Position numbers and translations under genes: made by a program. Shown in pieces: positions 3,939 to 38,520 of a stretch of DNA of 64,000 nt. The notes below the pieces were generated by a model. The model worked only from the letters and a program-made list of their open reading frames with translations. It had not been told where the DNA came from and ran no database searches. The stretch covers positions 17,936 to 81,935 of the forward strand of contig JAVVDU010000002.1 of NCBI GenBank assembly GCA_032251515.1, in the 5' to 3' direction. The DNA is from Gemmatimonadota bacterium (lineage in GTDB: Bacteria; Gemmatimonadota; Gemmatimonadetes; Palauibacterales; Palauibacteraceae). The stretch's first letter is position 1. Each line of letters starts with the position of its first letter.

Positions 3939-4050
3939 AGAGCGTAAGAAGCTGGGATTCGGACCGAAGCGGGGCCTCCGGACGGGGACGCTGATCCTGC
4001 TGCTGCTGCTCGTCCTGCTCCTCATCGCCTACCTCGACCGTGCCGGCTGA
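3916..4050 (+). CDS. possible 44-aa single-pass membrane peptide (MSLRDIREERKKLGFGPKRGLRTGTLILLLLLVLLLIAYLDRAG)
   Basis: ATG-initiated sORF filling the oxidoreductase-lpxB junction, overlapping both. Charged N-terminus plus a Leu-rich TM helix. Not in the supplied ORF track because it is under 60 aa. Confidence 0.25.
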   Translation: MSLRDIREERKKLGFGPKRGLRTGTLILLLLLVLLLIAYLDRAG

Positions 4051-11752: not shown

Positions 11753-11803
11753 CGGCGGGGCAGCCCGGGTCCGGAGGCGCCGCGCGCGGAGCCGGCGCGC
11801 TTC

Positions 11804-20155: not shown

Positions 20156-21165
20156 GCCGCACCCCGATCGCCGTCATCGGAGGAGGGAGCTGGGGCACGG
20201 CGCTGGCCGACTGCCTGGCCCGCAACGGGCATGCCGTACGCCTGTGGGTCCACGAGCCGGAGGTGGCGCAGGCCATCGCCGCGGACCGCCGGAACGAGGC
20301 CTACCTCCCCGGCGTCGAGCTGCATGCCGGCCTCCGGCCTGCACACGATATGGAAGTCGCGCTGGAGGGCTGTAACGTAGTGATTTCCGTGAGTCCATCT
20401 CATGTCGTGCGAGAGGTGATGACGCGGGCGGCGCCGACGATTCCGGCGGGGGCGCTCGTCGTGAGCGCCTCGAAGGGCCTCGAGATCGAGTCGGGGCTGC
20501 GGATGAGCGAGGTCCTCGCCCAGGTCCTCGGCCGGGAGCGCGCAGCGGGGTGCGTGGTGCTGTCCGGTCCGAGCTTCGCGGCCGAGCTCGCGCGGCGCCT
20601 GCCCACCGCGGTCGCCCTGGCGTCCGGGTCGCTTCCGAACGCCGAGCGGGTGCAGGCGCTGTTCCAGAACGAGCACTTCCGGTTGTACACGCAGGGTGAC
20701 GTGATCGGGACGGAGCTGGGCGGCAGCCTGAAGAACGTCGTCGCGCTGGCGGCGGGGATCAGCGACGGGCTCGGCCTGGGGGCCAATGCGCGGGCGGCCC
20801 TCCTGACCCGCAGCCTCGCCGAGCTCGGCCGGCTGACCGAGCGCTGCGGGGGCGACCCGGCCACCCTGTCGGGACTCGCCGGAGTCGGAGACCTGGTCCT
20901 CACGTGCACGGGCGACCTGAGCCGGAACCGGCGCGTGGGCCTCGCGATCGGCGAGGGACGGTCCCTGGCGGAGATCCTCGCCGGCATGCGGTCGGTGGCG
21001 GAAGGAGTGCGCACCACCCGGGCCGTCATGGAGCTCGCCGGGAAGCACGGGGTGGAAATGCCCATCGCCGCCGCCGTATACTCCATCCTGTACGAAGATG
21101 TCGCCCCCCGTGAGGCCCTCGCGGCACTGATGGCACGGGAGCCGAAGCCCGAACGCTGGAGCTGA
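20152..21165 (+). CDS. gpsA: NAD(P)H-dependent glycerol-3-phosphate dehydrogenase GpsA
   Basis: GTGA overlap with plsY. Signature IAVIGGGSWGTALA and GpsA C-terminal domain. der-gpsA synteny as in Firmicutes. Confidence 0.9.
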   Translation: MSRTPIAVIGGGSWGTALADCLARNGHAVRLWVHEPEVAQAIAADRRNEAYLPGVELHAGLRPAHDMEVALEGCNVVISVSPSHVVREVMTRAAPTIPAGALVVSASKGLEIESGLRMSEVLAQVLGRERAAGCVVLSGPSFAAELARRLPTAVALASGSLPNAERVQALFQNEHFRLYTQGDVIGTELGGSLKNVVALAAGISDGLGLGANARAALLTRSLAELGRLTERCGGDPATLSGLAGVGDLVLTCTGDLSRNRRVGLAIGEGRSLAEILAGMRSVAEGVRTTRAVMELAGKHGVEMPIAAAVYSILYEDVAPREALAALMAREPKPERWS

Positions 21166-22297: not shown

Positions 22298-22932
22298 CCG
22301 GCGCGTATCGCCACTCGCGGCGCCGTCTGGTCGAGGCGCTCGCCGCGGGCGGCATCGAGGACCTCGCGGTGCTGCACGCCTTTCACGCGGTGCCGCGCCA
22401 CCTGTTCGTGCCCGAGGCGGTGCGGCACCGCGCCTACGAGGACGCGGCGCTTCCGCTGGGCCACGGACAGACGATCTCGCGTCCCGCCGTGCATGCCGCG
22501 TTCCTGCAGCTCGCCGGGCTGCAGGGCCACGAGCGCGTGCTGGAGATCGGGACGGGGTCGGGCTTCCAGACGGCCCTCCTGGCCACCCTGGCGCGCGAAG
22601 TGTGCACGGTCGAGGTCGTCCCCGCGCTCGCGGACGAGGCCCGGCGGGCCGTCACGGCCCTCGGGTTCGAGAACGTGAGCTTCCTCACCGGAGACGGGAG
22701 CGCGGGCTGGCCGGCCAGGGCCCCGTTCGACGTGATCCTGGTGGGCGCGGCGGCCCCCGAGGTGCCGGCGGCGTTGCAGGAGCAACTCGCGGTGGGCGGC
22801 CGGCTCCTCATCCCGGTCGGAGACACGCGGCGGCAGGTGCTCCTGCAGGTGGACCGGACAGGGGATGGCTGGTCCACGCGGGAGGTGGAGCCGGCGCGGT
22901 TCGTCCCCCTGGTGGGAGAGGGGGGCTGGTGA
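22279..22932 (+). CDS. pcm: protein-L-isoaspartate O-methyltransferase Pcm
   Basis: VLEIGTGSGFQTALLA SAM motif. PCMT fold. Confidence 0.85.
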   Translation: MDPGAVAGAYRHSRRRLVEALAAGGIEDLAVLHAFHAVPRHLFVPEAVRHRAYEDAALPLGHGQTISRPAVHAAFLQLAGLQGHERVLEIGTGSGFQTALLATLAREVCTVEVVPALADEARRAVTALGFENVSFLTGDGSAGWPARAPFDVILVGAAAPEVPAALQEQLAVGGRLLIPVGDTRRQVLLQVDRTGDGWSTREVEPARFVPLVGEGGW

Positions 22933-23549
22933 CGGAACCGGCCACCCCCCCGGCGAAGCGGGACAACGTGTTGCGGCGTCTCTATCACTGGGTGCTCGGC
23001 TGGGCGGACCGGCCCGGGGGCACCGCGGCCCTGTTCGGCATCGCGTTCGCCGAGGCATCCTTCTTCCCGATCCCGCCCGACGTCCTGCTGATTCCGCTCG
23101 CGCTGGGCCGCGTGCGACGGTCGCTGTGGTTCGCGCTCGTCTGCACCTTGGGATCGGTGTTCGGAGCCATGGCCGGTTACGCGATCGGCGCCTTCCTGTT
23201 CGCCTCCGTCGGCCGACCACTGCTCGAGTTGTACGACGGCATGGACCAGTTCGCGCACCTGGGTCGCCTGTTCGACGAGAACCTCCTGCTGACCCTCGGT
23301 ACGGCGGGGTTCACGCCGATCCCGTTCAAGGTGTTCACGATCGCCTCGGGGGCGTTCGCCGTCTCCTTTCCCGCCTTCGTGGCCATCTCCGCGCTGAGCA
23401 GGGGAGCACGCTTCTTTTTCGTGGCGGGGCTGATCCGCGCCTTCGGGGAGCCGATCCGGGGCTTCATCGAGCGGTACTTCAACATCCTCTCGGTGGCCTT
23501 CGTGGCACTGCTGGTTCTCGGATTCCTGGCCGTCTCCATCCTGTTCTGA
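22929..23549 (+). CDS. YqaA/DedA-family (SNARE-associated) membrane protein
   Basis: GTGA overlap with pcm. Conserved FFPIPPDVLLIPLAL segment. 206 aa with several TM helices. Confidence 0.6.
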   Translation: MTEPATPPAKRDNVLRRLYHWVLGWADRPGGTAALFGIAFAEASFFPIPPDVLLIPLALGRVRRSLWFALVCTLGSVFGAMAGYAIGAFLFASVGRPLLELYDGMDQFAHLGRLFDENLLLTLGTAGFTPIPFKVFTIASGAFAVSFPAFVAISALSRGARFFFVAGLIRAFGEPIRGFIERYFNILSVAFVALLVLGFLAVSILF

Positions 23550-23624
23550 GCTCCGCCGGGAACGACGCCCGGCCGTCCGCCGGGCGCGACGGCCGGGCGC
23601 GAATCGGCCCCGGGGCGGCCCTCT

Positions 23625-23640
23625 TGGCACGAGAGCGGCT
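23625..23640 (+). promoter_or_regulatory. candidate sigma-54 (-24/-12) promoter TGGCACG-AGAG-CGGCT upstream of the 23751 gene
   Basis: GG-N10-GC spacing matches TGGCACG-N4-TTGCW, except that TT is replaced by CG in the -12 box. About 110 nt upstream of the ATG. rpoN is present in the window. Confidence 0.25.
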
Positions 23641-23750
23641 CCGCCCGTAGGTTGACGGGCCGCGTCCGGGGGCGCATTCCCGCCGGCGCCCATGTGACCT
23701 GTTCGTAATTCATTGTCAAAAAGTCATTTACGCCGAAAGGTGCAAGCGGC

Positions 23751-24584
23751 ATGGCAAGGCAGATCGCGAAGGAATCCCGTTCCGGACCACCGCCGCCCGA
23801 GGACCGCGTCACCGAGACGATGGTCACGGCGGCCGTATGGGCGGAGCGACATCGCCGCACCCTCGTTCTGGCGGTGGTGGCCGCGGTCGCCCTGGGCCTG
23901 GCCGGCTGGGCGTGGCTCGACTACCGGGGCAAGCTGGTGGAGCGTGCTGCCACGCGCCTGGACGAGATCCGTCTCGAGGCCGCCTCCGGAGCGCCTCCAT
24001 CGGAGGTGAAGGCGGCGCTCGCCACCTACGTGGAGCAGTTCGGCGACACGTCGTTCGGTAACGAGGGACGGATGTACCTGGCCCGGCTCCAGATGGAGGA
24101 GCGGGACTACGCGGCGGCGATCCGGACCCTCGAACCGGCGGCCGAGCTGCGGGAGAAGACTCCGGTCGCGTTCCGCGCCGCCGAGTCGATCGCCGCCGCG
24201 GAGGAGATGCGCGGCAACCCCGAGGAGGCGATCCGCTGGCTGCAGCGCCTGGCGGACGCGGCGCTGTTCGCCGACCAGGCCCGGCGGGCGGAGGCGGAGA
24301 TCGCCCGGATCGCCGCGCAGGCGGGCGACCTGGAGCGGGCCCGGGCGACGTACGCCCGGCTCGTCGCCGAAACGGCCGCGGAGGACCAGGCCGCCGGCGC
24401 GGAGCTGGCCGAGTGGCGGGTGCGGCTCGGGGAGGTCGAGGCGGCGCTGCGCACCGACGCCGAGATCCCGGCGCCGCCCGTCGCGGCCCCGGCGGCGGCG
24501 ACGCAGACGGAAGGGGCTCCGGGGAGCGAGGCGCCTGGTGCGGACGCGCCCGTGGAGGAAGGCAGCGAGGCTAACGGCGCATAA
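23751..24584 (+). CDS. YfgM-like membrane-anchored TPR/helical-repeat protein
   Basis: Cytoplasmic N-terminus, one TM helix (TLVLAVVAAVALGLAGWAWL), an Ala/Glu-rich helical periplasmic domain and an acidic low-complexity tail. Confidence 0.4.
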   Translation: MARQIAKESRSGPPPPEDRVTETMVTAAVWAERHRRTLVLAVVAAVALGLAGWAWLDYRGKLVERAATRLDEIRLEAASGAPPSEVKAALATYVEQFGDTSFGNEGRMYLARLQMEERDYAAAIRTLEPAAELREKTPVAFRAAESIAAAEEMRGNPEEAIRWLQRLADAALFADQARRAEAEIARIAAQAGDLERARATYARLVAETAAEDQAAGAELAEWRVRLGEVEAALRTDAEIPAPPVAAPAAATQTEGAPGSEAPGADAPVEEGSEANGA

Positions 24585-24601
24585 GGTATATTATGTAAAC
24601 T
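24574..24601. other. dif: dif chromosome-dimer resolution site (XerC/XerD target): ACGGCGCATAA-GGTATA-TTATGTAAACT
   Basis: 21/28 identity to E. coli dif. Fits the cross-phylum consensus ATAAnrTAyATTATGThAAnT. Located in the convergent gap where coding strand switches. Overlaps the stop codon of the 23751..24584 gene. Confidence 0.6.
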
Positions 24602-24658
24602 AGCGCTCCGGTCTCTCCGCCCGCGTTCCTGTTCCGGGCGCGGCCGTCTCTTCCCCGC

Positions 24659-25426
24659 TCACAGCCGCCCGAAGATCGACGCGAGGCGCAGGGCCCACAC
24701 CCGCCACACGGCCTCCCGCACGATCGCCCCCGACATCTTGCTCTGGCCGTCCGTGCGGTCGCTGAACACGATCGGGACCTCGTGCAGGCGGAACCCCTTC
24801 TTCCAGGCCCGGAAGTCCATCTCGATCTGGAACGCGTAGCCGGTGCTCCCCACGCGCTCCAGGGGGATCGCCTCCAGCACCTCGCGCCGGAAGCACTTGA
24901 AGCCGCTCGTGGCGTCCGACAGGGGCATCCCGGTGATCCAGCGCGCGTACCGGTTGGCGAACCAGGACAGGAGGAGCCGGCCCATCGGCCAGTTGATCAC
25001 GTTCACGCCGCGCACGTAGCGGGACCCGATGACCAGGTCCGCCTCCTCGCGGGCCGCCCGCAGGAGCTCGGGCAGGTAACGCGGGTCGTGCGAGAAGTCC
25101 GCGTCCATCTCGCACAGGAAAGCGTAGCCCCGCTCGAGGCCCCATGCGAACCCGGCGAGGTAGGCCGAGCCGAGTCCCTGTTTCCCGGCGCGATGCAGGA
25201 CGTGCACCCGGGGCGACTCGGTCGCGAGCTGATCCGCGATCCGCCCCGTGCCGTCCGGCGACGCGTCGTCCACCACGAGGACGTCGATGCGGGAATCGGC
25301 CGCGAGGATCCGCGGCAGGATGCCCGGCAGGTTCTCGGCCTCGTCGTACGTCGGGAGGACGACGAGCGTCCTCTCGCGGCCCGTCCGGCCTTCACCCTCG
25401 CGCCTGTCGCTGCCGTGCTCGCTCAT
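24659..25426 (-). CDS. Dpm1-like GT2 polyprenyl-phosphate mannose (or hexose) synthase, soluble type
   Basis: LVVLPTYDEAENL, VLVVDDASPDGT, DADFSHDP and SRY..GV...W (Dpm1/Ppm1 catalytic domain). No C-terminal TM. Start at 25426 verified by residue count. Confidence 0.75.
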   Translation of the reverse strand: MSEHGSDRREGEGRTGRERTLVVLPTYDEAENLPGILPRILAADSRIDVLVVDDASPDGTGRIADQLATESPRVHVLHRAGKQGLGSAYLAGFAWGLERGYAFLCEMDADFSHDPRYLPELLRAAREEADLVIGSRYVRGVNVINWPMGRLLLSWFANRYARWITGMPLSDATSGFKCFRREVLEAIPLERVGSTGYAFQIEMDFRAWKKGFRLHEVPIVFSDRTDGQSKMSGAIVREAVWRVWALRLASIFGRL

Positions 25427-26469
25427 TTCCTCTCGTCTGCCGTCTCCGAGGGGCCGCGCCCTCCGCCTGTGTCGGGTGGGCCGCCGTCGATCCGCCGCGA
25501 CGTCTCCGCCCTCCCGCCGGCCCGCGGGAGCCAGGCGACCCCGAGGGCGCCGAGCTCCGCCGCGGTCGACCACAGCCGGGCGACCGCGGCGAACGCCGCC
25601 GCCGGAGCGAGGGAAACGGGGCCCGTCGCCACGAGGAGGCCTGCCAGAGCCCCTTCCCTCACCACCAGGCCGCCGGGCGCGAACAGTGCCAGGTAACCGG
25701 CCAGGTAGGCTGCGGCGAACAGGCCGGCGAACCTCCACGGGCCGGGGTCCGCGGGCCCGCCCACCCCGCGCCACAGGAGCCACAGTCCCACGCCCTGCAG
25801 GAGCCAGGCGGCCACCAGGGCCGCGCCGCCGGACCACAGGGCCCGGGGCCCGGATCGCGCCAGCGCGGCCGTCTCCCCTTCCCCGAAGCGGCGTGCCAGC
25901 AGACGGGCCAGCCGCACGGCCGGTGCAGGCCGCAGGAGAAGACCGAGCCCTGCCACGACGAGCGCCGCCGCCCCCACCCGCATCCAGGCGCCGCCCGGCG
26001 TGCCCCCGAGGGACGCCAGGGCGACGGCCGCCCCCGTGCCCAGCACGAGGACCTGGAAGAGCGCTGCCGCGGCGAGGGCGGCCGCGCCCGCGCCCCGGCG
26101 CTCGCGCATGTAGGCGGCGAGGCCGGCGAGCTGCCACACCTTGCCGGGAACGTAGCGGCCCAGGTTCGTGGTCATCCACACCCGGATGCCCTCTGCCGTG
26201 CCGCAGCTGCCTCCCAGACGCCGGAAGATACCGACCCACACCCGTCCCATCACGAACAGGGAGAGGATTCCGGGGCCCAGCGAGGCGAGGGCCCAGCCCG
26301 GGCGCAGGCGCCATCCCGCTGCGGCGAGGTCGGCCCGCAGCCGGCCGAGCTCGCCGCCCTGCCGCGCCCACAGCGCGCCGAGAAACGCCAGCGACAGGAC
26401 CACGAACGCCCACCCCCCGAGACGCAGGCGGCGGGACGCGCGCCGGGGCTCAGCCGGCGTCCCGGACAC
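25423..26469 (-). CDS. flippase-like polytopic membrane protein (UPF0104 / lysyl-PG-synthase-TM-like domain)
   Basis: Start is a GTG at 26469 (V19 of ORF 25423..26523). About 8 TM helices. ATGA-coupled to the Dpm1-like gene. Family call is from general similarity. Confidence 0.4.
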   Translation of the reverse strand: MSGTPAEPRRASRRLRLGGWAFVVLSLAFLGALWARQGGELGRLRADLAAAGWRLRPGWALASLGPGILSLFVMGRVWVGIFRRLGGSCGTAEGIRVWMTTNLGRYVPGKVWQLAGLAAYMRERRGAGAAALAAAALFQVLVLGTGAAVALASLGGTPGGAWMRVGAAALVVAGLGLLLRPAPAVRLARLLARRFGEGETAALARSGPRALWSGGAALVAAWLLQGVGLWLLWRGVGGPADPGPWRFAGLFAAAYLAGYLALFAPGGLVVREGALAGLLVATGPVSLAPAAAFAAVARLWSTAAELGALGVAWLPRAGGRAETSRRIDGGPPDTGGGRGPSETADERK

Positions 26470-28765
26470 GGCCTGGTCCGAGAACGCGCCAGCGGCGCAC
26501 CGCCGGGACGAGCAGCACGGCAAGGGCGGCGGCCAGGCCGAGTCCCGTGAGCGTGAAGCCGAGCCGGAATTCGTCGGGAGCGTAGCGGAACCGGACCACG
26601 TGCCGGCCCTCCGGCACCACGACGGCCCGGAAGGCGACGTTGGCCCGCAGCACCTCGAGCTCCTCGCCGCCCTCCAGCTCGGCCCGCCACGCCGGGTGCC
26701 AGATCTCGCTCACGAACAGGAGGCCGCCCGTCTCGGCCTCCACCTCCAGGTCCACCGCGTCCGGCTCCCAGCGGACCACCCGCGCCGCGCCACGCCCGGC
26801 CGGCGGCGCGCGATCCGTCTCCACAACCACCGCGTCGGCCGGCCGCTCGGCCCGCAGGACGGCCTGCAGGGCGGCCGCCGTGTCCCGCGTCGCCCGCACC
26901 GCGGCGGGAAACCAGGCGTGCGGCCCGTCTCCGGCCACCTCGTGCAGCACGCCGCGCGGGCCGGCGGAGACGGGCTCGAGCAGCGGCGACTCCACCGGCC
27001 CGTCGGTAACGACGAAGCGCAGGTCGAACAGGGGCCACAGACCCGGGTCGCCGAGATTCCGGTACGACAACCCGCCGGTGAGCCGCTCCGTCCACTCGAG
27101 CCGGAAGTTCTGGCTGCCGGTGACGGACGGCACGCGGGCACCCATCAGCTCGTTGGGGCCGAACGTGCGCCGGCCGGGGACCGGGAACACGCGCTCCCCG
27201 GGGGCCAGCTCCGCGCGCATGCGGTCGATCGACTCCGCCGCCGGGAAGGCCTCCTCCGGGGTCAGCGTGGCCAGGTAGCGCCGGTCCACGCGCCACAGGT
27301 CCGCCACGAGGAGCGCGAGGACGGCGAGCAGCGCCGCCGGCTCCGGCCAGCGGCCGCTCGCCACCCCGCGGGCCGCCGCCCCCACCAGGCCGAGCCCGGC
27401 GAGCAGGAGGAGGCCGTTGAGCCGCAGCGCCCCGGTGGCCGCCTCGCCGGGAGCGCCCGCCCCGGCCGGCACGAGGGCCGTCCCGGCCCAGCGCATCATG
27501 CCGGCGGGCGCCAGGGCCGCCGCCAGGCCGAGCAGGAGCAGCGGCGCGGCGGCCACGAGGAGACCCACCCACGGCAGGCCCCCCTGCGTCGCGCGCGCCG
27601 CCCGGATGCGCTCCCAGCCGAAGGCGGCCAGGAGAGCGACGAACAGGGCCACCGGGCCGAGCATCATCGAGGGGGCCCGGAACCGCGAGATGAAGGGGAT
27701 GAGGTGGAAGGCGAGGCGGTGCACCGGGGTCGCGGCCCCCAGCGCGAACAGCAGGCCGAGCGCCGCCAGGGCCCCGAGGGCCGCCACTCGACCGTCGCGG
27801 CGGGCCCGCGTCAGGCCGACCAGGGCGAGCGCGACCGGCACCGCGCCCAGGTACTCCGTGTGGAGCTTGAACGGGTTCGCCCCGCGGTACGTCTCCAGCG
27901 ACCCGAGGAGGTCCGGGAGCACCAGCGCCGTCAGCTCGCCCGGCGGCAGCGCCCAAGACGCGGCGAAGCCGTACCCGGCCTCGCCGGTGCCGCCGCGCAC
28001 GGCGATCTCGAGAATCCGCCACGTCGGCACGAGCTGCGCCGCTCCCACCAGCGCCGCCAGCACGAACGCCCCGGCCACCGCGCCCCCGGCGTGTACGGCG
28101 CGGGACCTGCCCTCCTCCCGGGCCAGCATGGCGATCCGGACCAGCGCGTAGAACAGGAGCAGCAGCGACGAGAAGTACATCAGCTGCACGTGGGGCGTGA
28201 AGATCTGCAGCGCCACGACGAGGCCGAAGCCCGCGAACCAGGCGACCCGGCCCGACGCCAGCCCTTTCTCGAGACAGGCGAAGGCGAGCGGCGTCAGCAC
28301 CATCACGAACATGCGGCCGTCGTGGCCGCCGTACAGGGTGGAGACGACGAAGCCGGTCAGCAGGAACGAGATGCCGGCGACCGCGGCGGCGCTGCGCCCC
28401 AGCCCGAGGGCACGCGCGGCGAACCAGGCGAACACGCCCGACAGGAACGTGTGCAGGACGAACGTCCACCCGATGGCGCGGTGCAGCGGCAGGACCAGGT
28501 ACAACAGGCTCGTGGGATAGAAGACCGGGCCCGGCAGGATGGCCAGGTACGGCAGTCCCCCGTACACGAACGGGTTCCAGAGCGGAAAGCCCCGGCCCGC
28601 CTTCAGCTCCTCGACGGCGAAGGCGCGCAGGTGGTACGCCTGGTCCAGCATGTCCGTGCCGAACAGCATGCGATCCGGCCGCAGGACGAACTCCGCGTAG
28701 AACCCCAGCGTGAGGACCGCGCAGGCCGCCGCGAACAGGGCCCCGGCCGGCGGGCGCCGGGTCAC
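26450..28765 (-). CDS. YfhO-family GT-C-type membrane glycosyltransferase (772 aa)
   Basis: GTG start at residue 217 of the 987-aa ORF. Upstream of that the ORF is the antisense of the methyltransferase gene. N-terminal 10-13 TM helices with a large C-terminal periplasmic domain. YfhO-like length and topology. Confidence 0.55.
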   Translation of the reverse strand: MTRRPPAGALFAAACAVLTLGFYAEFVLRPDRMLFGTDMLDQAYHLRAFAVEELKAGRGFPLWNPFVYGGLPYLAILPGPVFYPTSLLYLVLPLHRAIGWTFVLHTFLSGVFAWFAARALGLGRSAAAVAGISFLLTGFVVSTLYGGHDGRMFVMVLTPLAFACLEKGLASGRVAWFAGFGLVVALQIFTPHVQLMYFSSLLLLFYALVRIAMLAREEGRSRAVHAGGAVAGAFVLAALVGAAQLVPTWRILEIAVRGGTGEAGYGFAASWALPPGELTALVLPDLLGSLETYRGANPFKLHTEYLGAVPVALALVGLTRARRDGRVAALGALAALGLLFALGAATPVHRLAFHLIPFISRFRAPSMMLGPVALFVALLAAFGWERIRAARATQGGLPWVGLLVAAAPLLLLGLAAALAPAGMMRWAGTALVPAGAGAPGEAATGALRLNGLLLLAGLGLVGAAARGVASGRWPEPAALLAVLALLVADLWRVDRRYLATLTPEEAFPAAESIDRMRAELAPGERVFPVPGRRTFGPNELMGARVPSVTGSQNFRLEWTERLTGGLSYRNLGDPGLWPLFDLRFVVTDGPVESPLLEPVSAGPRGVLHEVAGDGPHAWFPAAVRATRDTAAALQAVLRAERPADAVVVETDRAPPAGRGAARVVRWEPDAVDLEVEAETGGLLFVSEIWHPAWRAELEGGEELEVLRANVAFRAVVVPEGRHVVRFRYAPDEFRLGFTLTGLGLAAALAVLLVPAVRRWRVLGPGRVRDAG

Positions 28766-29514
28766 GCGGCGCTCTCCGGCTTCCGGACGACGAAGAACCA
28801 CTGGGGCGAAAGCGCCCGCAGCACGAGGCGCCGCGGAACGCCGGGCAGTCGCCGGAAGAGGCGCCAGGCACGCACGAGGGCCGGGCCACGCAGCCGTCCG
28901 AGCAGGTCGTCGATCGCCGCCTCCGTGATGTCGTCCACCTCGAATCCCGCCGCCTCCATCCGCTCGCGCAGCGCCCGGTAGCCGAGGAACCGGATCCCCT
29001 CGTAGCGGCGGCCACGCCCGGAGAGCCGAAGGTACAGGGTGGCGGCGGGGGCCGGAAGCCAGCTCAGGAACGGCAGCCGGTAGTGGGGCTCGAGCACCGC
29101 GAAGCGGCTGCCGGCCGAGACGTAGGCCCGGCCGCCGCGCCGGAGGACGCGGAACGTCTCGCGTAACAGCCCCGCCACGTCCGGCACGTGCTCGTACAGG
29201 TGGTTGAGCAGCGCGAAGTCGACCGTGCCGTCCCGCAGGGGAAGGCGCAGCACGTCGGCTCCCACCATCCGCGACCGGTCGACCACGAACGACAGGTCGA
29301 TCTCGAAGCCGAGCACGGGGTGCCCGGCCCGTCGCTCGAGGGCGGCGCGGATGAGCCCCGTGCCCGCCCCGAGATCCGCCGCGACGGCGGCCTCCCGGAG
29401 CCACGGCGCGCACAGGTGCCAGATCACCTCTGCCTTGCGTTCGCGGCTGCGAAGGTACGCCTCGGAAGAGACGAGAGCGCCGTAGCGGTCCGCGCCGGCG
29501 TGCTCACGCCCCAC
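28762..29514 (-). CDS. class I SAM-dependent methyltransferase
   Basis: Motif I DLGAGTG. Methyltransf_11/23-like. GTGA overlap with the yfhO-like start. Confidence 0.65.
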   Translation of the reverse strand: MGREHAGADRYGALVSSEAYLRSRERKAEVIWHLCAPWLREAAVAADLGAGTGLIRAALERRAGHPVLGFEIDLSFVVDRSRMVGADVLRLPLRDGTVDFALLNHLYEHVPDVAGLLRETFRVLRRGGRAYVSAGSRFAVLEPHYRLPFLSWLPAPAATLYLRLSGRGRRYEGIRFLGYRALRERMEAAGFEVDDITEAAIDDLLGRLRGPALVRAWRLFRRLPGVPRRLVLRALSPQWFFVVRKPESAA

Positions 29515-30718
29515 GGCGGCGCTCCAGGGCCGTACGGTAGGCCTCCTCCGTCCGGTCCAGCACCGCCCGCCAGCCGAACCGTTCCCGGGCGCGCACGCGG
29601 CCCCGCCGCGCCATGTCCCGCGCCGCGGCCGGGTCCGCCGCGATGCGCTGGAGGGCTTCCGCCAGCGCTCCCGGGTCGCCGGGCGGCACGAGCAGCCCGG
29701 TATGGCCCGGCTCGACGATGTCCGGAATCCCGCCGACGGCGCTCGCTACCACCGGGCGCTCGTAGCGCAGGGCCTCGAGGAGCACCACGCCCAGCCCCTC
29801 GGTGTCGCCCTTCGCATCGACCACGGCGGGCAGCACGAACACGTCGGCCCGGGCGTACTCCTCCTCGAGCCTCCGACGCGACACGAAGCCCGGCATCCGG
29901 ACCCGCCCGGCGAGGCCCAGGGACTCGATCTCCCGGCGGATCGACCGTTCCCGCTCCCCTGCCCCGATCACCGTGAGCTCGGCGCCCGACGCGGCCGGCA
30001 GGCGCGCCACCGCCCGCAGGAGGATCTCCACTCCCTTCCGTTCCACGAGGCGTCCCACGAACAGGATGCGCAGGCGGTCCGGGTCCGCCCCGGCGGCCCG
30101 CGCGACGGGAGCGCCGTCGTCCTCGATCGCGCTGCCGTAGGGAACGACGGACACGGGCCCCGGGGCGAGCGCCTGCACGGCCGCCGCCGTGGAGCGGGAG
30201 ATCGCCGTCACCGCGTCCGCCGTGCGGACCGTCCAGCGCAGGAACGGCAGGAGGGCGGGCAGCCGGTGCCGCACCCAGTTCAGCTCCACGCTGTAGAAGC
30301 TGCACACGACGCCGGCCTTGCCCCCGGACCCGTGCCGCGCGGCAGCCCCGAACAGGGCGTGCGGCATCGGCCAGTGCACGTGCACCACGTCGAGCCCCCG
30401 GCGCCCCAGCCGGTGCGCCGCGTCGGCGCCGGCAGCGAGGTAAGCCGGCAGCAGGAACCCCTGCAGCGGCCGGCGGCGCAGGCGGTCCGGCACGGTCTCG
30501 TCGTGCGTGAGCGTCTCCAGGGCGGCGGGCGCGTAGCGGAAGCGGTGCACGGGGAGAGCGCCCGCGGCGCCCGGCTCCGGTCCGCCGCGGTAGGAAGGCG
30601 CCAGGACGACCGCGTCGTGGCCGGCATCCCGCTGCCGGCGCACCAGCTCGACCAGCCACGGGGTGATCGGATCCCGTTCGTGCCGGGGCCACGCCGTGAC
30701 GACGTGCAGGACGCGCAT
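29504..30718 (-). CDS. GT4-family glycosyltransferase (GT-B fold)
   Basis: C-terminal GT4 signature ...ADVFVLPA..EG.G.V.LEA...RPVVAS..GG..D.V. Confidence 0.8.
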   Translation of the reverse strand: MRVLHVVTAWPRHERDPITPWLVELVRRQRDAGHDAVVLAPSYRGGPEPGAAGALPVHRFRYAPAALETLTHDETVPDRLRRRPLQGFLLPAYLAAGADAAHRLGRRGLDVVHVHWPMPHALFGAAARHGSGGKAGVVCSFYSVELNWVRHRLPALLPFLRWTVRTADAVTAISRSTAAAVQALAPGPVSVVPYGSAIEDDGAPVARAAGADPDRLRILFVGRLVERKGVEILLRAVARLPAASGAELTVIGAGERERSIRREIESLGLAGRVRMPGFVSRRRLEEEYARADVFVLPAVVDAKGDTEGLGVVLLEALRYERPVVASAVGGIPDIVEPGHTGLLVPPGDPGALAEALQRIAADPAAARDMARRGRVRARERFGWRAVLDRTEEAYRTALERRRGA

Positions 30719-30743
30719 GACGGAAGGCTGCGGCCGCGCCGCG

Positions 30744-31721
30744 TCAGCGGGGACCGGACGGGTTCCGGGCCGCCCTCACCTCGCCGCGCAGCTGCTCGAC
30801 TTCGGCACGGAGCCCGGCCACCAGCTCGCCCACGAGCCCCGCCACGAACAGCAGCGCGCCCAGGAGGACGAGCAGCAGGACGAGCGTGAGCAGCGGGCGG
30901 AAACCGGTGTCGCGCACGAACCGGAGCCACAGCGCCGCGAGGCCCACTACCCCGCCCGCGGCGAACAGGACGAGTCCCGTCGTGCCGAAGAACATCAGGG
31001 GCTTGCGCGCGAACACGAGCTGGAACCACACGGCGAGCAGATCGAGGGTACCGACGAGGATCCGGCCGCCGCCCCGGTACTTGGAGGTGCCGTGGCGCCG
31101 GGGGTGCAGGGCGATGTCGATCTCCCCGACCCTCCAACCCCGCACGTGTGCCAGGACGACGAGGTAGCGATGCCAGTCCTCCCGGAGCTGCAGGTCGTCC
31201 AGCACCTCGCGACGCAAAGCCTTCATCGCGTTCATGTCGTGCACCGGGACGCCGAACAGCCGGCGGGCCAGCCCGTTGTAGATCCCCGACACGAGACGCT
31301 TCTCGTAGCGGCCCACCTTGCGGCCGGTCACCACGTCCAGACCGCCTCCGGACTCCAGGGCATCCAGGAAGCGGGGGATCTCCTCGGGGGAATGCTGCAG
31401 GTCGGCGTCGAACACGACGAGGACGGGAGCCTCCGTGGCGGCGGCCCCGGTGACGATCGCCGACGTCTTGCCGCGGTTCCGCCGGTGGCGGAGCAGGCGC
31501 ACCCGGTCCAGCCCCGCCTCGGCCGCCGCGGCGCGCGCCGCGGCGAGCGTGTCGTCCGTCGAGCCGTCGTCGACGAGCACGACCTCTCCCGCGAGTCCGT
31601 GGCGGCCGAACGTGGCGGCCAGCTCGCGGAACAGGTCCGGCATGTTCGCGGCCTCGTCGAGGGCCGGCACGAGGACGGCGAAGCGCGGCGGCGGAGGAGC
31701 CACGCCCCGTTCCGGGCTCAT
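30744..31721 (-). CDS. GtrB/ArnC/CsbB-type GT2 polyprenyl-phosphate glycosyltransferase with C-terminal double TM
   Basis: GT2 DxD (VVFDADLQHSPEE) and VLVPALDEAANM. Two C-terminal TM helices. ATGA overlap with the rpoN stop. Confidence 0.75.
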   Translation of the reverse strand: MSPERGVAPPPPRFAVLVPALDEAANMPDLFRELAATFGRHGLAGEVVLVDDGSTDDTLAAARAAAAEAGLDRVRLLRHRRNRGKTSAIVTGAAATEAPVLVVFDADLQHSPEEIPRFLDALESGGGLDVVTGRKVGRYEKRLVSGIYNGLARRLFGVPVHDMNAMKALRREVLDDLQLREDWHRYLVVLAHVRGWRVGEIDIALHPRRHGTSKYRGGGRILVGTLDLLAVWFQLVFARKPLMFFGTTGLVLFAAGGVVGLAALWLRFVRDTGFRPLLTLVLLLVLLGALLFVAGLVGELVAGLRAEVEQLRGEVRAARNPSGPR

Positions 31722-33157
31722 ACGCGCTTGCGCATCCGGGCGGCGAGGATCCCGAGCTGATCGCGGTACTTCGCGACCGTCCGGCGGGCGATCTGCACTC
31801 CCTCGCCCTTCAGGATGTCCACGATGGCCTGGTCGGTGAGCGGCTTCTTCTCGTCCTCCTCGGCGACGAGCTTCTGGATGCGGGCCCGGATCCCCCGGGC
31901 CGACACGTCCTCCCCGAAGTCGGTCGACAGGCCGCTGGAGAAGAAGAACTTCAGGGGGAGCACGCCGCGGGGCGTCTGCACGTACTTCTCGTTCGTGACG
32001 CGCGACACGGTCGACTCGTGCATGTCGATGTGCTCGGCCACCTCGCGCAGGGTCAGCGGCCGCAGGTGCTCGACGCCCTTCTCGAAGAACTCCCGCTGCC
32101 GGTCGACGATGAAGTGCATCACCTTGAGCATCGTCTGCCGCCGCTGCTCGATCGCCTGGATCATCCACTGCGCCGAGCTGAGCTTCTTCGCGATGAACGC
32201 CTTGTTGTCGCCCTGGTACTTGTTCTTGTCCGCCGCGACCTCGCGGTAGGCCCGCGACAGCTTGAGGCGCGGCAGGGACGAGTCGTTGTGGTACACGTAG
32301 TACTCCCCGTCCACCTTCTCGACCGTCAGGTCAGGGGTGACGTAGTTGTCGCTCGCGTCCGCGTGCCGCAGCCCGGGCTTGGGGTCGAGGCGGGCGATCT
32401 CGTCGGCGGCCGCCTGGACCTCCCGCGCCGGGATCCCGTGCTCCTTCGAGAGCTCGCTCCAGCGGTGAGAGACGAGCTGCTCGAAGTGATCCCGGACGAT
32501 ACGGAACGAGAGCGTCTCCTCCTCGCCGCGGTCGCGCAGCTGGATGAGCAGCGTCTCGCGCAGGTCCCGCGCGCCCACGCCGGTCGGCGAAAACCCCTGG
32601 ATGACCGTCAGAATCGCCTCCGCCTCCTCCACCGTGAACGGCTCCAGATCCTCGCGCATCTCCGGCTCGGCCGAGGCGAGCCAGTCGTTCGCGGCGACGA
32701 CCACGTCCTCCAGCGGGCAGGTGAGGAATCCCTCGCGGTCGATGTTGCCGATGATCTCCTCGCCGAGAAACCGCTCGCGTGGCTCGAGGCGGGTGAGGTT
32801 CAGCTGCTCGCGGAGGTGGTCCCACAGGTCGGGCGGCGCGGCGGGCGTGGGCAGGAAGTCCTGGCGCTCCTCGAAGTCGCCCCGGCGTCCGCCGGCCTCG
32901 AAGCCGTTGAGGAGGATCTCCTCCCAGTCCATCTCGTCCTCTGCCTGCGGCTCCTCTTCCTTGGTCTCCTCCTCCTCTTCCTCGACCGGCTCGGCCAGCT
33001 CGAGGAAGGGGTTCGCCATCATCTCCTGCTTGAGGTGCTGCTGCAGGTCGAGGAGCGGCATGTAGAGAAGGTCCATCGCCTGGTAGAGGCGTGGATTGAT
33101 CTTGAGTTCCTGCCGCATTCCGAGGCTCTGGCTGAGCCCTCTGCGCATGTTGGCCAT
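31718..33157 (-). CDS. rpoN: RNA polymerase sigma-54 factor RpoN
   Basis: N-terminal activator-interacting region I (LSQSLGMRQELKINPRLYQAMDLL), acidic region II, and the RpoN box ARRTVAKYR at the C-terminus. Confidence 0.9.
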   Translation of the reverse strand: MANMRRGLSQSLGMRQELKINPRLYQAMDLLYMPLLDLQQHLKQEMMANPFLELAEPVEEEEEETKEEEPQAEDEMDWEEILLNGFEAGGRRGDFEERQDFLPTPAAPPDLWDHLREQLNLTRLEPRERFLGEEIIGNIDREGFLTCPLEDVVVAANDWLASAEPEMREDLEPFTVEEAEAILTVIQGFSPTGVGARDLRETLLIQLRDRGEEETLSFRIVRDHFEQLVSHRWSELSKEHGIPAREVQAAADEIARLDPKPGLRHADASDNYVTPDLTVEKVDGEYYVYHNDSSLPRLKLSRAYREVAADKNKYQGDNKAFIAKKLSSAQWMIQAIEQRRQTMLKVMHFIVDRQREFFEKGVEHLRPLTLREVAEHIDMHESTVSRVTNEKYVQTPRGVLPLKFFFSSGLSTDFGEDVSARGIRARIQKLVAEEDEKKPLTDQAIVDILKGEGVQIARRTVAKYRDQLGILAARMRKRV

Positions 33158-33227
33158 CGGCCCCCGTGATCCGTTCCGTGTCCCGGTCTGGAGCGTCGTC
33201 TCTCCCCCGAACCGCGCTCGCTCCCTG

Positions 33228-33233
33228 ATAATA
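33228..33233 (-). promoter_or_regulatory. TATTAT -10-like hexamer (minus strand) upstream of rpoN
   Basis: AT-rich hexamer within the 111-bp lptB-rpoN intergenic region. No convincing -35. Confidence 0.15.
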
Positions 33234-33241
33234 GGAGAGTC

Positions 33242-33261
33242 GGGGCGCTACGGCACGCCCC
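33242..33261 (-). terminator. GC-rich hairpin (GGGGCG-N8-CGCCCC) immediately downstream of lptB
   Basis: 6-bp perfect stem with an 8-nt loop, 8 nt after the lptB stop. Followed on the transcript by a pyrimidine/U-containing stretch. Confidence 0.3.
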
Positions 33262-33268
33262 TTGCACT

Positions 33269-33994
33269 TCAGAGCTGAAAATCGAGTCCGAGATACATCT
33301 TCCGGGCCTCCGGATCCTCGACGAGCCGCTGTGCGGGCCCCTCGATGTGGATCCGCCCGTTGAACAGGAGGTAGGCCCGGTCGGTGATCGACAGCGTCTC
33401 GCGGACGTTGTGGTCGGTGATCAGCACCCCGAGCCCGCGCTCCCGCAGCTCCGCCACGATGCGCTGGATGTCGTCCACGGCGATCGGGTCCACGCCCGCG
33501 AACGGCTCGTCCAGGAGCATGAACTTCGGTCGGGTGACGAGCGCGCGGGTGATCTCCAGGCGCCGCCGCTCTCCTCCCGACAGGCTGTCGGCCACGTTGT
33601 CGCGCAGGTGGCCGATGGACAGCTCGTCCAGGAGCTCGTCGAGCCGCCGCTCGCGCTCCTTCCGCGTCAGGTCGAGCGTCTCGAGGATGGCCAGCACGTT
33701 CTCGGCTACCGTGAGCCGCCGGAACACGGACGGCTCCTGCGACAGGTAGCCGATCCCCGCGCGGGCGCGCTTGTACATCGGCACCTTCGTCAGGTCTGTC
33801 GCATCCAGGAGCACCCGTCCCGCATTGGCCTTGAGCAGGCCCACGATCATGTAGAAGGTGGTCGTCTTCCCTGCCCCGTTGGGGCCCAGCAGGCCGACGA
33901 TCTCGCCCTGGCGGACCTCGAGGCTCACGCCGTCCACCACGCGGCGGCGCCCGAACTCCCGCACCAGGTTCTCCGCCCGCAGCACGCTGCTCAT
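33269..33994 (-). CDS. lptB: LPS export ABC transporter ATP-binding protein LptB
   Basis: Walker [11 protein letters not shown], signature [11 protein letters not shown], Walker [11 protein letters not shown]. 241 aa. Immediately upstream of rpoN. Confidence 0.9.
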
Positions 33995-35342
33995 GGGATC
34001 CCTCCCCCGTCGCCGGGCTCCAGGAACACGCCGATCGCGTCGCTGCCCCGCGAATGAGCGGGCTGCCCGTCCTCGAACGCGATCTCGATGCGCGATCCCA
34101 GCATGTAGTTCTTCGACGGAGTCGTCGCGGTGGCCGTGTCTCGCACCGCCGCCGTGAACGACCGGGCCCGGCCGATCGCGACCAGCCGGTCGATCCAGAC
34201 CTCGCCGGCGGTTCCCTCGGCGGTTCCCTCCGCCTCGGGATCCTCGGGTGCCTGCGTGGGCGCGGCCGGGCGGAACGCGGCCCGTACCGTGTCGCCCGCC
34301 ACCCAGTTCGCTCCCGGCCTCGTGTCGAGGACCGGCTCGGCGAGCGGGGCGTCCGGGGCTGCCGCCGCGGAGTCGACTTCCGCCGCCGCGGCGCGTCCCA
34401 CCGCGGTCAGGGAGTCCGCGCGTCCGTCGACGAACCCGAACACGATGGAATCCCCGGCGAGCACGAACTGCTCGGATGACGCCAGGGAGCGGCCGCGGCC
34501 GAACGCCCACAGGGTCTCCACGACGTCTCCGGCGACCACGGCGCGAATCTGCTCGGAATGCATCCGGTGCCCCTCGCCCGTCGCGCGGGCATCGCCGAAC
34601 GAGTGGATCGTGCGCAACTCTCCCACCTCGAACCCGGCCCGGATGCTGTCGCCCTCGAGCTCGAACGCCGGCCCGGTCACGACGGGACGCCCGTACAGGA
34701 CGGCCAGTGCGACCGCCTCCGAGAAGCGGGCGCTGTCGGCCACCGCGCGGATGTCCCCGCGGACCATCACGACATCGCCGCGCGCGAAGGCCTCGGTTTC
34801 GCCCAGGAACTCCGAGACGTCGGCGTCGATCACGGCCGTCGAGATCGCTCCGCTCTCGCCCCGGCCGGAGGGGAGGGTCATTCGCGGCCGTCCCGTGGCG
34901 ACGGTTCGCGATCCCGCGAACGGCGTCCGGAAGAAGCGCGCCGCGGGGCCCTCGAGGGTGGCCCCGGTGGCCAGGCGCACCAGTCGCACCGACCCTTCCG
35001 CCAGGACCTGGTCGGTTCGCCCGAAGAAGGTGAGCCGGTCGGAGTTCAGGGTCCGCGTGGTGTCGCGGTAGCGCACGGAGCCGATCATCACGGCGCGCTC
35101 CAGCGCGGGCCGCCACACGGCGCTGTCTCCGGTCATCACCGCGTCCCCGCAGGTGACCGTCACGGGGCCCGACAGGTAGGCCGTCAGCGTCCCGGAGCCG
35201 TCCGGATCGGGGCGTTCCACGCGCGGGCCCGCACGCACGATGTCGGGCGCGCAGCGCTGCACGCCCTGCGCCCGCAGCCCGCCCCCCGTCGGCACGGCCG
35301 CCGCGAGCGTCAGCGCGGCCGCCGCGACCCTGGCGAGTCGGC

Positions 35343-35346
<4 letters not shown>
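33991..35346 (-). CDS. lptA: long LptA/OstA-N-like periplasmic protein (451 aa, probably tandem OstA-N folds)
   Basis: Signal peptide [19 protein letters not shown]. Repeated beta-jellyroll-like segments. Position between the lptC-like gene and lptB. ATGA overlap with lptB. Confidence 0.55.
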
Positions 35347-37639
<2,293 letters not shown>

Positions 37640-38404: not shown

Positions 38405-38448
38405 CGGTCGCGCGCATACGGGGCCGGCCGGATTCCGTTCACGCCCCG

Positions 38449-38479
38449 CAAGGTAGGGCGGCGGCGAAGACGCTGTCAA
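38449..38479 (-). promoter_or_regulatory. candidate sigma-70-like promoter TTGACA-N18-TACCTT upstream of kdsB
   Basis: Perfect -35 hexamer on the minus strand. Weak -10. About 45 nt upstream of the kdsB start. Confidence 0.2.
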
Positions 38480-38481
38480 AG

Positions 38482-38515
38482 GGGAGCCGGAGGGCGCCAA
38501 CCGCCGCCGGCTCCC
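38482..38515 (-). terminator. hairpin GGGAGCCGG-N16-CCGGCTCCC downstream of the 38521 gene
   Basis: 9-bp perfect inverted repeat beginning 6 nt after the stop codon of the 38521..40065 gene. Confidence 0.25.
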
Positions 38516-38520
38516 ACCGC

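Follow-up and report, generated by a model that had tools for sequence, protein, structure and literature searches.

Immediately 3' of rpoN, the gene for sigma-54, a 64-kb stretch of a Gemmatimonadota metagenome-assembled genome (MAG; contig JAVVDU010000002.1), hereafter the window, carries six minus-strand genes that we denote g1 to g6. They encode two glycosyltransferases (GTs) of family GT2, a GT4 enzyme, a methyltransferase, a YfhO-like protein of the GT-C fold and a UPF0104/PplT protein. On balance, we favor a reading in which cytoplasmic enzymes attach a sugar to polyprenyl phosphate and, once this product has been flipped, the GT-C enzyme passes the sugar on outside, with the acceptor left unnamed. 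Throughout a phylum that is mostly uncultured, the cluster is a fixed part of the core genome, and at least two neighboring candidate phyla share its core block. Envelope decoration by GT-A and GT-C enzymes is well understood in Firmicutes and Proteobacteria; the version described here is, as far as we could find, uncharacterized in any organism, and no paper describing it was found in the literature searched, in agreement with an earlier, first-pass annotation of this DNA. Nothing about the cluster is mechanistically surprising, and what is notable is its phylum-wide fixation behind rpoN, a testable role for UPF0104 and a sigma-54-type site.

Gene content and junctions of the cluster

The first-pass annotation had placed six consecutive minus-strand genes at 24659–31721. 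These coordinates are exact, the reading frames are backed by the codon-position G+C pattern, and all six of the family assignments proposed at that stage hold in a Pfam hidden Markov model (HMM) search. The gene nearest to rpoN, g1 (30744–31721, 325 aa), encodes an ArnC/GtrB-like GT2 enzyme (Glycos_transf_2, E 4.5e-24). It is followed by g2 (29504–30718, 404 aa), which encodes a GT4 enzyme of the GT-B fold (Glycos_transf_1, E 1.5e-40; Glyco_transf_4, E 1.7e-16), and by g3 (28762–29514, 250 aa), which encodes a class I S-adenosylmethionine-dependent methyltransferase (Methyltransf_11, E 8.5e-15; Methyltransf_23, E 4.9e-13). The product of g4 (26450–28765, 771 aa) is the YfhO-like GT-C protein (YfhO, 32.1 bits at a cut-off of 28.5), that of g5 (25423–26469, 348 aa) resembles UPF0104/PplT proteins and the flippase domain of MprF (LPG_synthase_TM, E 2.7e-10, 40.6 bits at a cut-off of 33.4), and that of g6 (24659–25426, 255 aa) is a Dpm1-like GT2 enzyme (Glycos_transf_2, E 1.6e-29). 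On the same strand, rpoN itself (31718–33157, 479 aa) carries the Pfam domains Sigma54_AID, Sigma54_CBD and Sigma54_DBD.

The spacing between these genes is tight and, for the five junctions described earlier, exactly as reported: ATGA overlaps join rpoN to g1 (31718–31721) and g5 to g6 (25423–25426), a GTGA overlap joins g3 to g4 (28762–28765), g2 and g3 overlap by 11 nucleotides (nt; 29504–29514), and g1 and g2 are separated by 25 nt (30719–30743). The g4/g5 junction, which had been left out, depends on the start codon of g5: with the GTG at 26469 the two genes overlap by 20 nt, and with the GTG at 26403 they are 46 nt apart. The overlap is 4 nt in relatives such as L001, and the start of g5 in the window is ambiguous. 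At its 3' end (24659), the cluster meets a convergent TPR_21 gene. A scan of 23500–39000 for consensus sigma-70 promoters and terminators returned no sites, and such a scan is uninformative for this phylum. Together, the rpoN/g1, g3/g4 and g5/g6 overlaps and the lack of terminator-like sites would fit a single transcript from rpoN on.

Conservation in Gemmatimonadota and coupling to rpoN

To describe conservation, we use a genome scan with one genome per species, which yielded 519 relatives. The locus counts refer to the best 80 of these, all from Gemmatimonadota MAGs, onto which the window proteins were mapped, with gene tables carrying Pfam marks as support. The g4 protein is 100% identical to the NCBI hypothetical protein RRA92_00995 of a Gemmatimonadota MAG. 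In the relatives, the gene order is lptC-lptA-lptB-rpoN-g1-(X)-g2-(g3)-g4-g5-g6, in which g3 and X, a second GT-C gene described below, are variable. Neighborhood conservation, suggested earlier as a check on the cluster, is borne out by the position of rpoN, which lies directly 5' of g1 in 47 of the 52 loci with at least 7 kb of upstream sequence; five loci hold the cluster without rpoN in front. The downstream half is equally regular, with g5 adjoining g4 in 67/69 loci, g6 adjoining g5 in 63/69, and g2 lying upstream of g4 in 62/63. The methyltransferase gene g3 is an accessory, variable member: 43 of 63 loci have it immediately ahead of g4, and in others it is absent, relocated or replaced by an Epimerase_2 gene. 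Identity to g6 ranges from 58 to 83% across the phylum, and the order is kept even in lineages with a GT-C protein only ~32% identical to g4, namely those of a 4.7-Mb Gemmatimonadota chromosome, a Longimicrobiales MAG and a 5.4-Mb genome. With dozens of related genomes sharing this gene order, the arrangement is not a product of chance.

The most constant feature is the junction with rpoN. All 54 loci that hold both genes have an overlap of the rpoN stop with the g1 start, as ATGA or GTGA (50 detected by script and 4 by eye). In the window, the last rpoN codon, GTA, and the TGA stop create the ATG of g1; GTA accounts for 9 of the 405 valine codons (2.2%) in twelve genes, and this one is the sole GTA of rpoN. 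The convergent block downstream of the cluster (TPR_21, PCMT, SurE, MerR, GpsA, Der and radical-SAM/DUF512) is syntenic in the relatives, and the G+C of the cluster (0.74–0.78) is like that of the rest of the window, which as a whole has ~72% G+C. Given this unremarkable composition and the syntenic downstream block, we assign the cluster to the core genome rather than to an island.

Variation is concentrated in the accessory genes. In several lineages, a UDP-GlcNAc 2-epimerase gene (Epimerase_2) is found beside the GT4 gene in place of the methyltransferase gene (L091 7760–8914, L092 7584–8864, L093 7720–8886, L087 5951–7075 and L090 8821–10008), and such a variable neighbor of the GT4 gene is a pattern typical of surface-glycan loci. 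The cluster ends with a PlsC-type acyltransferase gene in L092 and L093, which are Longimicrobiales-type loci, and with genes for a HAD phosphatase and a PfkB kinase in L091.

Predicted properties of the six proteins

The strongest structural evidence concerns g4. Its AlphaFold2 model, computed from an alignment of 24 family members, has a predicted local distance difference test score (pLDDT) of 86.5 and a predicted template modeling score (pTM) of 0.88. In a Foldseek comparison of the model with the PDB, AftD is the top hit, and the other best matches are ArnT, STT3/PglB/AglB, EmbA/B, AftA and PMT (lowest E 3.5e-9). All of these are GT-C enzymes, and the proposal that the 771-aa protein is a GT-C is thus upheld by its predicted fold. 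The top structural matches all use polyprenyl-phosphate-linked donors. We count at least 11 transmembrane (TM) helices; a beta-rich domain lies on the periplasmic side, and the C-terminus carries a TM helix. Conserved acidic residues are located in the first outer loop. D38, just after TM1, is D or E in 24/24 relatives, and D149, E166, E277, D285, H349 and R363 are invariant in the family. Residues 666–740 match positions 761–835 of the 835-position YfhO profile (PF09586) above the gathering threshold, and PF09586 is precomputed for nearly all g4 relatives. No NCBIfam model matches g4, and a search of PDB sequences with the g4-family profile gave no match.

None of the six proteins reaches an NCBIfam equivalog cut-off. 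Among solved structures, g1 is related to ArnC over its full length (E 2e-25), to dolichol-phosphate-mannose synthase (DPMS; E 4e-17) and to GtrB (E 7.5e-10). Its best NCBIfam match is also ArnC; as the score of 97.1 bits is far under the cut-off of 529, g1 is a homologue of ArnC and not an orthologue. It has 2–3 C-terminal hydrophobic helices, with TM segments at 220–298. The other GT2 enzyme, g6, is soluble and has no TM helix. The closest solved relative of g6 is the dolichol-phosphate-mannose synthase of Pyrococcus furiosus (E 7.6e-33, residues 20–246). Its DAD motif is common to the whole superfamily and no equivalog is reached; it is probably a polyprenyl-phosphate hexose synthase, perhaps for mannose. 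Soluble and without a TM helix as well, g2 has as its nearest solved relatives Tll1590 (sucrose-phosphate-synthase-like), PimB' (second, E 5e-23) and BshA, and by its sequence it is a generic GT4 enzyme of the cytoplasm.

The match of g5 to PF03706 covers positions 22–295 of the 302 in the profile, and 30 of 33 g5 orthologues match this family (best E 1.1e-25). We predict 7–8 TM helices, of which 7 are detected as hydrophobic segments. A profile and sequence search of the g5 family against PDB chains gave no match, and a single-sequence AlphaFold2 model (pLDDT 51) is too poor for comparison with the solved flippase domain of MprF. The only MOP-family protein in the annotated part of the window is MurJ; within the cluster, the flippase position is taken by the UPF0104/PplT protein.

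Proposed pathway and acceptor

The order of events put forward in the first-pass annotation, in which a polyprenyl-phosphate sugar is made, flipped and then used by a GT-C enzyme outside, holds by protein family and by the predicted GT-C fold of g4. On the cytoplasmic face, the membrane-anchored, ArnC/GtrB-like g1 would load a nucleotide-sugar-derived sugar onto polyprenyl (undecaprenyl) phosphate, and the soluble, Dpm1-like g6, probably held at the membrane by g5, would load a second sugar onto polyprenyl phosphate. The lipid-linked sugar would most likely be moved to the periplasmic face by g5, and g4 would then pass the sugar on to an acceptor located beyond the cytoplasmic membrane. In the cytoplasm, g2 and g3 may build or tailor the glycan or glycolipid that is decorated later. 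The possibly methylated sugar of the first-pass annotation would be a tentative reading, the methyltransferase gene being missing, moved or exchanged for a UDP-GlcNAc 2-epimerase gene in other lineages. The analysis establishes the protein families and folds, the membrane topology, the packing of the genes, their synteny across the phylum and the presence of the GT4/YfhO/PplT/GT2 block in other phyla; the enzymatic activities, the sugar identities and the lipid flipped by g5 are what we infer here.

The established design of such glycosylation systems combines neighboring GT-A and GT-C genes with a flippase: undecaprenyl phosphate is charged by the GT-A enzyme, the flippase carries the product across, and the GT-C enzyme passes on the sugar outside (PMC8035078). 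The proteins g1, g6 and g4 fit this design. For g5, the relevant precedent is archaeal: there, UPF0104 genes share a neighborhood with genes for a PMT/STT3-like GT-C and an AglD-like GT2, and UPF0104 is the predicted flippase of the pathway (PMC5898192). Because g6-g5-g4 mirrors this neighborhood, g5 can be read as the membrane partner of g6 and the candidate flippase for its product. The cluster in this way offers a concrete, testable role for UPF0104/PplT proteins outside MprF.

That the acceptor is the lipopolysaccharide (LPS) core or lipid A is possible if rather doubtful, as the idea comes only from synteny with lpt and kds genes that is confined to one phylum. About equally plausible would be a different glycolipid or lipoglycan of the envelope, or proteins of the envelope. 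Should the product prove to be a decoration of LPS or of the outer membrane, it would add to knowledge of the Gemmatimonadota cell surface.

A second GT-C gene and related blocks in other phyla

In 54 Gemmatimonadota loci, we observe a further multi-TM protein of 530–570 aa, X, encoded beside g1, between g1 and g2 (for example, L003 6435–8039, L001 6293–8005 and L091 6160–7758); in Palauibacter, X sits between g2 and g4. Of 28 X sequences, 21 match PMT_2, the Pfam family of ArnT. An hhalign comparison of the X and g4 families detected no relationship, and the X-family profile gave no match to PDB sequences. As X adjoins g1 in most relatives, the majority state comprises two GT-A/GT-C pairs, one formed by g1 and X and the other by g6 and g4 with PplT between them, together with the GT4 gene and a variable tailoring gene. 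X has no match anywhere in the 64-kb window, and the closest clade is also without it. The six-gene set of the window is a reduced version in which X has been lost, and the absence of X leaves g1 without an adjacent GT-C partner. In the natural fusion proteins P0172, P0180, P0210, P0239 and P0269 (1209–1289 aa), the N-terminal part is a PMT_2 GT-C domain and the C-terminal part is YfhO-like, which provides Rosetta-stone-type evidence that the two GT-C families may act jointly.

The g4 family extends well beyond Gemmatimonadota, with its profile retrieving 71,501 cluster representatives at E ≤ 1e-3, of which 10,761 remain when the limit is E ≤ 1e-30. Five distant neighborhoods were read, and in four of them the gene lies in the same kind of block, the fifth being a stand-alone gene. 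Two of the four belong to unassigned lineages, with the orders GT4-?-YfhO-PplT-GT2-Bac_transf and PMT_2/TPR-GT2-PMT_2-GT4-epimerase-PplT-YfhO-GT2-GT2/Bac_transf. A Zixibacteria genome has GT2-GT4-PplT-YfhO-GT2-GT2-WecA-like, followed by accA, a ptsN-like gene and mreCD-pbp2-rodA, and an Eisenbacteria MAG has the same components with additional epimerase, aminotransferase and formyltransferase genes (both phylum names follow the NCBI assignment of the proteins). The YfhO-like proteins of these distant blocks are 28–29% identical to g4 over the full length. In Zixibacteria, Eisenbacteria and the unassigned lineages, the GT4/YfhO/PplT/GT2 block is located away from lpt and rpoN, and its neighbors outside Gemmatimonadota are phosphoglycosyl transferases, sugar-nucleotide genes or mreCD-pbp2-rodA. 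We also note PTS_EIIA_2 (PtsN-like) genes a few genes from the YfhO-like gene in L089 (16080–16532, Zixibacteria) and L088 (2776–3234, unassigned). In enterobacteria, ptsN follows rpoN, and the proximity seen in these distant loci is probably a coincidence.

Relation to known systems

When compared to characterized systems, the cluster has the membrane-associated GT-A (g1) and the GT-C (g4) of a multi-component (three-component) transmembrane glycosylation system and lacks a GtrA/Wzx flippase. Because equivalog scores fail, the YfhO match is partial, and GtrA and Wzx are missing, the cluster is not an orthologue of CsbB/GtcA/YfhO, ArnC/ArnT, GtrABC, AglD/AglS or the mycobacterial lipoglycan pathway. 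In the CsbB/GtcA/YfhO systems, which glycosylate lipoteichoic and wall teichoic acids in Bacillus, Staphylococcus and Listeria (PMC8035078, PMC5836110), a GT2 enzyme charges undecaprenyl phosphate, as proposed here, and the likeness extends to a multi-TM YfhO-family GT-C, which has an extensive outer domain and ends in a TM helix, and to the clustering of the GT-A and GT-C genes. The present host, however, is diderm and without teichoic acids, the YfhO match of g4 is C-terminal only, and the candidate flippase is UPF0104/PplT rather than the GtrA-type GtcA. The cluster also has two GT-A genes, a GT4 gene and a methyltransferase gene, and it is fused to rpoN.

The proteobacterial systems ArnC/ArnE-ArnF/ArnT, for lipid A aminoarabinose, and GtrA/GtrB/GtrC, for O-antigen glucosylation, apply the same logic of GT-A, flip and GT-C to an LPS-related acceptor in a diderm. 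The g1 protein resembles ArnC and GtrB over its full length, the g4 model has ArnT as one of its best structural matches, and X of the relatives falls in the ArnT Pfam family. The differences are that g1 scores 97 bits where the ArnC equivalog demands 529, that ArnE/F and GtrA are missing, and that the ArnT-family partner is absent from the window. The window also holds no ArnA/B/D sugar-nucleotide genes, whereas the Eisenbacteria relative has aminotransferase and formyltransferase genes nearby.

In the archaeal AglD/AglR/AglS branch of N-glycosylation, a Dpm1-like GT2, UPF0104 and a GT-C match g6-g5-g4, and AglD is itself a GT2-UPF0104 fusion that makes dolichol-phosphate mannose for AglS (PMC5898192, PMC3871713). 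Here, in contrast, the host is bacterial, the three functions are encoded by separate genes and the GT-C is of the YfhO type; in Haloferax, the acceptor is the S-layer N-glycan, and the Wzx-like AglR is experimentally implicated in flipping. The same enzyme classes also recur in the mycobacterial and corynebacterial pathways for phosphatidylinositol mannosides (PIM), lipomannan (LM) and lipoarabinomannan (LAM), which involve PimA/PimB', Ppm1 and the GT-C enzymes PimE, MptA, AftD and Emb. PimB' is the second-best solved relative of g2, AftD is the top structural hit of g4, and the Dpm1-like polyprenyl-phosphate-mannose synthase is likewise soluble and without a TM anchor of its own. Against this likeness, orthology at equivalog level and phosphatidylinositol (PI) synthesis genes are lacking, and both the phylum and the envelope differ. 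We know of no UPF0104 protein that acts in the PIM/LM/LAM pathway.

A cytoplasmic glycosyltransferase (GT4 in gpgS) accompanies a predicted flippase of the UPF0104/YbhN type in gpgSDF of P. aeruginosa, which serves glucosamine (GlcN)-phosphatidylglycerol, and in hexSDF of C. difficile, and the flippase domain of MprF belongs to the UPF0104 family as well (PMC12713373; bioRxiv 10.1101/2022.03.11.483950). The gpgSDF and hexSDF loci include a deacetylase and have no GT-C or polyprenyl-phosphate GT2, whereas the partners to which g5 is coupled are a Dpm1-like GT2 and a GT-C. Finally, the enterobacterial lptCAB-rpoN-hpf-ptsN-rapZ-npr operon likewise places rpoN directly after lptC-lptA-lptB in a region rich in envelope genes. 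In the present case, rpoN is followed not by hpf, ptsN, rapZ and npr but by glycosylation genes, the first of which is translationally coupled to it.

Weighing the alternatives

Several observations weigh against the proposed pathway of charging, flipping and GT-C transfer. Neither the cluster nor the rest of the window, as far as it is annotated, encodes a flippase of the GtrA or Wzx type, and direct evidence on UPF0104 proteins concerns glycerolipid translocation only. The window has two sugar-charging GT-A enzymes for one GT-C. The Pfam YfhO match is limited to the C-terminal 75 residues of g4, and it is this profile match, rather than a direct comparison to a characterized YfhO, that leads us to call the protein YfhO-like. 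All relatives found are uncultured MAGs, and co-transcription of the cluster is only what we infer from its gene spacing. The Bac_transf- and WecA-like initiating enzymes beside the block in other phyla would also fit an oligosaccharide linked to undecaprenyl diphosphate (Und-PP).

The main rival, which we judge unlikely, is that the genes make a lipoglycan or glycolipid along the lines of PIM/LM or gpgSDF. In such a pathway, g2 would glycosylate a glycerophospholipid or diacylglycerol, g3 might modify the product, g5 would flip the glycolipid, and g4 would extend it with polyprenyl-phosphate sugars from g1 and g6. That g5 might flip a glycolipid made by g2 is suggested because UPF0104/PplT is the flippase domain of MprF, which moves phospholipids, and because UPF0104-type predicted flippases are paired with cytoplasmic glycosyltransferases in P. 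aeruginosa gpgSDF and C. difficile hexSDF. A GT4, the Dpm1-like Ppm1 and GT-C enzymes likewise make up the set at work in mycobacterial PIM/LM synthesis, the solved relatives of g2 include PimB' (E 5e-23) and PimA, with a weak NCBIfam match to GlcNAc-phosphatidylglycerol synthase, and a PlsC-type acyltransferase gene ends the Longimicrobiales-type loci. However, the resemblance of g2 to BshA, to EpsE and to glycogen-synthase-like GT4 enzymes is just as close, its scores stay below every equivalog cut-off, and the cluster is without an inositol or PI-synthesis gene. The position of g5 also argues for a different partner, as it is translationally coupled to g6 and located between g4 and g6 rather than beside g2, and the archaeal precedent ties UPF0104 to Dpm1-like enzymes. 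An alternative concerning the acceptor is protein O-glycosylation, in which g4 would decorate periplasmic or outer-membrane proteins, like PMT and the streptococcal GtrB/PgtC2, and not LPS or lipid. The YfhO-family PgtC2 with GtrB glucosylates Ser/Thr-rich regions of streptococcal membrane proteins (PMC12041528), PMT and STT3/PglB are among the structural matches of g4, and the partner GT-C of the relatives, X, belongs to PMT_2. We nevertheless consider this improbable: the matches of g4 to the lipid- and polysaccharide-modifying AftD, ArnT and Emb are as good or better, the cluster encodes no candidate acceptor protein, and the GT4 and methyltransferase would have no obvious role in single-sugar protein glycosylation.

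A reading in which g5 flips an Und-PP-linked oligosaccharide that g4, as a ligase, oligosaccharyltransferase or polymerase, uses in place of a monosaccharide donor is less probable still. In four loci of other phyla, the block is found beside Bac_transf or Glycos_transf_4 (WecA/MraY-like) genes and further GT2 genes, and the GT-C enzymes PglB, STT3 and AglB use such donors. The Gemmatimonadota cluster and the annotated part of the window, on the other hand, contain no initiating phosphoglycosyl transferase, the families of g1 and g6 make polyprenyl-monophosphate sugars, and GT-A/GT-C adjacency is a hallmark of monosaccharide-donor systems. It is highly improbable that the genes form no single functional unit, with g2 a divergent BshA and g3 a thiol N-methyltransferase for (N-methyl-)bacillithiol. 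The bshC gene lies in the same window (9538–11316, plus strand), g2 matches the BshA model near full length (E 5.7e-30) with solved BshA among its best hits, and the methyltransferase gene follows g2. Yet four phylum-level lineages retain a GT4 gene within this block of membrane enzymes, the methyltransferase can be missing or have an epimerase in its place, and overlaps of 11 and 4 nt link g2-g3-g4. The assignment of g2 as BshA was rejected on its score of 104.5 bits at a TIGR03999 cut-off of 273.7, the higher score of EpsE and the conserved block context.

A sigma-54-type motif upstream of rpoN

The lptB-rpoN spacer (33158–33268) contains a sigma-54-type -24/-12 motif, GGCACGCCCCTTGC, at 33252–33265 on the plus strand, opposite to the genes. 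It is the sole exact GGCAC-N5-TTGC in the 64-kb window. Among 41 orthologous lptB-rpoN spacers of at least 60 nt, the exact motif is present in 18 (0.07 expected), and 21 have it with at most one mismatch (0.62 expected); across all fetched loci, 24 of the 28 exact matches fall in this spacer. The motif lies 93–146 nt upstream of the rpoN start, its distance to the lptB stop is variable, and an A/T-rich (TAT) -10-like box is found on the gene strand ~18–20 nt past it. The GG and GC blocks are fixed among orthologues while the N5 spacer varies, as sigma-54 promoters behave. A sense-strand copy is also present in six loci, and there is no such spacer in lineages where lptB and rpoN abut or overlap. 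Window-wide, the loose sigma-54 pattern with up to two mismatches is not enriched (27 matches, with 42 expected), and the informative signal is that of the exact core motif. An RNA stem-loop in the spacer was considered and set aside, with folding no better than that of shuffled sequences (z = 0.30) and a hairpin register that is unconserved by eye.

This spacer bears on the extent of the transcription unit, which the first-pass annotation had drawn as continuous with the lpt operon. The tight packing from rpoN to g6 is as described there, but lptB and rpoN are 111 nt apart. Because the spacer holds a conserved motif and a -10-like box, we take the coupled unit to be rpoN-g6 rather than the whole of lpt-rpoN-g6, and rpoN-g6 may have its own control, separate from the lpt genes. 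Plausibly, sigma-54 holoenzyme bound at the putative site would occlude the rpoN promoter, resulting in negative autoregulation; an antisense promoter is an alternative role for the motif. Negative rpoN autoregulation in Rhizobium leguminosarum is among the findings cited in PMC3538637. The gene for sigma-54 is in any case physically coupled to a predicted envelope glycosylation pathway, and the sigma-54-type site that precedes rpoN at a short distance is conserved. A much broader proposal, which we regard as speculative and unlikely to hold in full, is that the YfhO-like GT-C, UPF0104/PplT and Dpm1-like GT2 would form a widespread bacterial three-component system with PplT as the long-sought polyprenyl-phosphate-sugar flippase, and that in Gemmatimonadota this system would make a phylum-specific envelope glycoconjugate tied stoichiometrically to sigma-54 by translational coupling and an autoregulatory sigma-54 site.

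Upstream genes and other features of the window

Upstream of the cluster, the genes named in the first-pass annotation were all found again from open reading frames (ORFs), translations and Pfam. Ahead of rpoN, they are, on the minus strand, kdsB (37640–38404; CTP_transf_3, E 7e-50), pyrG (35903–37621; ORF and translation), lptC (35343–35909; a weak Pfam LptC match), an lptA-like gene (33991–35346, 451 aa; Pfam LptD_N, 22.8 bits) and lptB (33269–33994; ABC_tran, E 1e-38). The lptC/lptA and lptA/lptB overlaps are 4 nt each, and lptB is separated from rpoN by the 111 nt discussed above. The LptA-like protein, at 451 aa (457–601 aa in relatives), has a weak LptD_N/LptA match over residues 76–236 only; E. 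coli LptA, at roughly 185 aa, is far shorter.

The window as a whole is an envelope-biogenesis neighborhood. On the plus strand, a single frame at 665–2146 has LpxC and FabA/FabZ-like domains, and genes for a hexapeptide acyltransferase (LpxA/LpxD-like) and LpxB are found near it (1–840 and 3995–5161). The window also contains murJ (11753–13366). Coding-like codon bias with no Pfam family is observed for the ORFs at 38521–40065 (minus), 2190–3488 (minus), 5661–6887 (minus) and 22865–23650 (plus), of which the one at 38521–40065 lies just upstream of kdsB and encodes 514 aa with a signal-like N-terminus. A 551-aa ORF at 19510–21165 on the plus strand has GpsA domains only in residues 220–537. 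In the relatives, separate PlsY (G3P_acyltransf) and GpsA genes occupy this position, and the ORF may be either two genes or a fusion.

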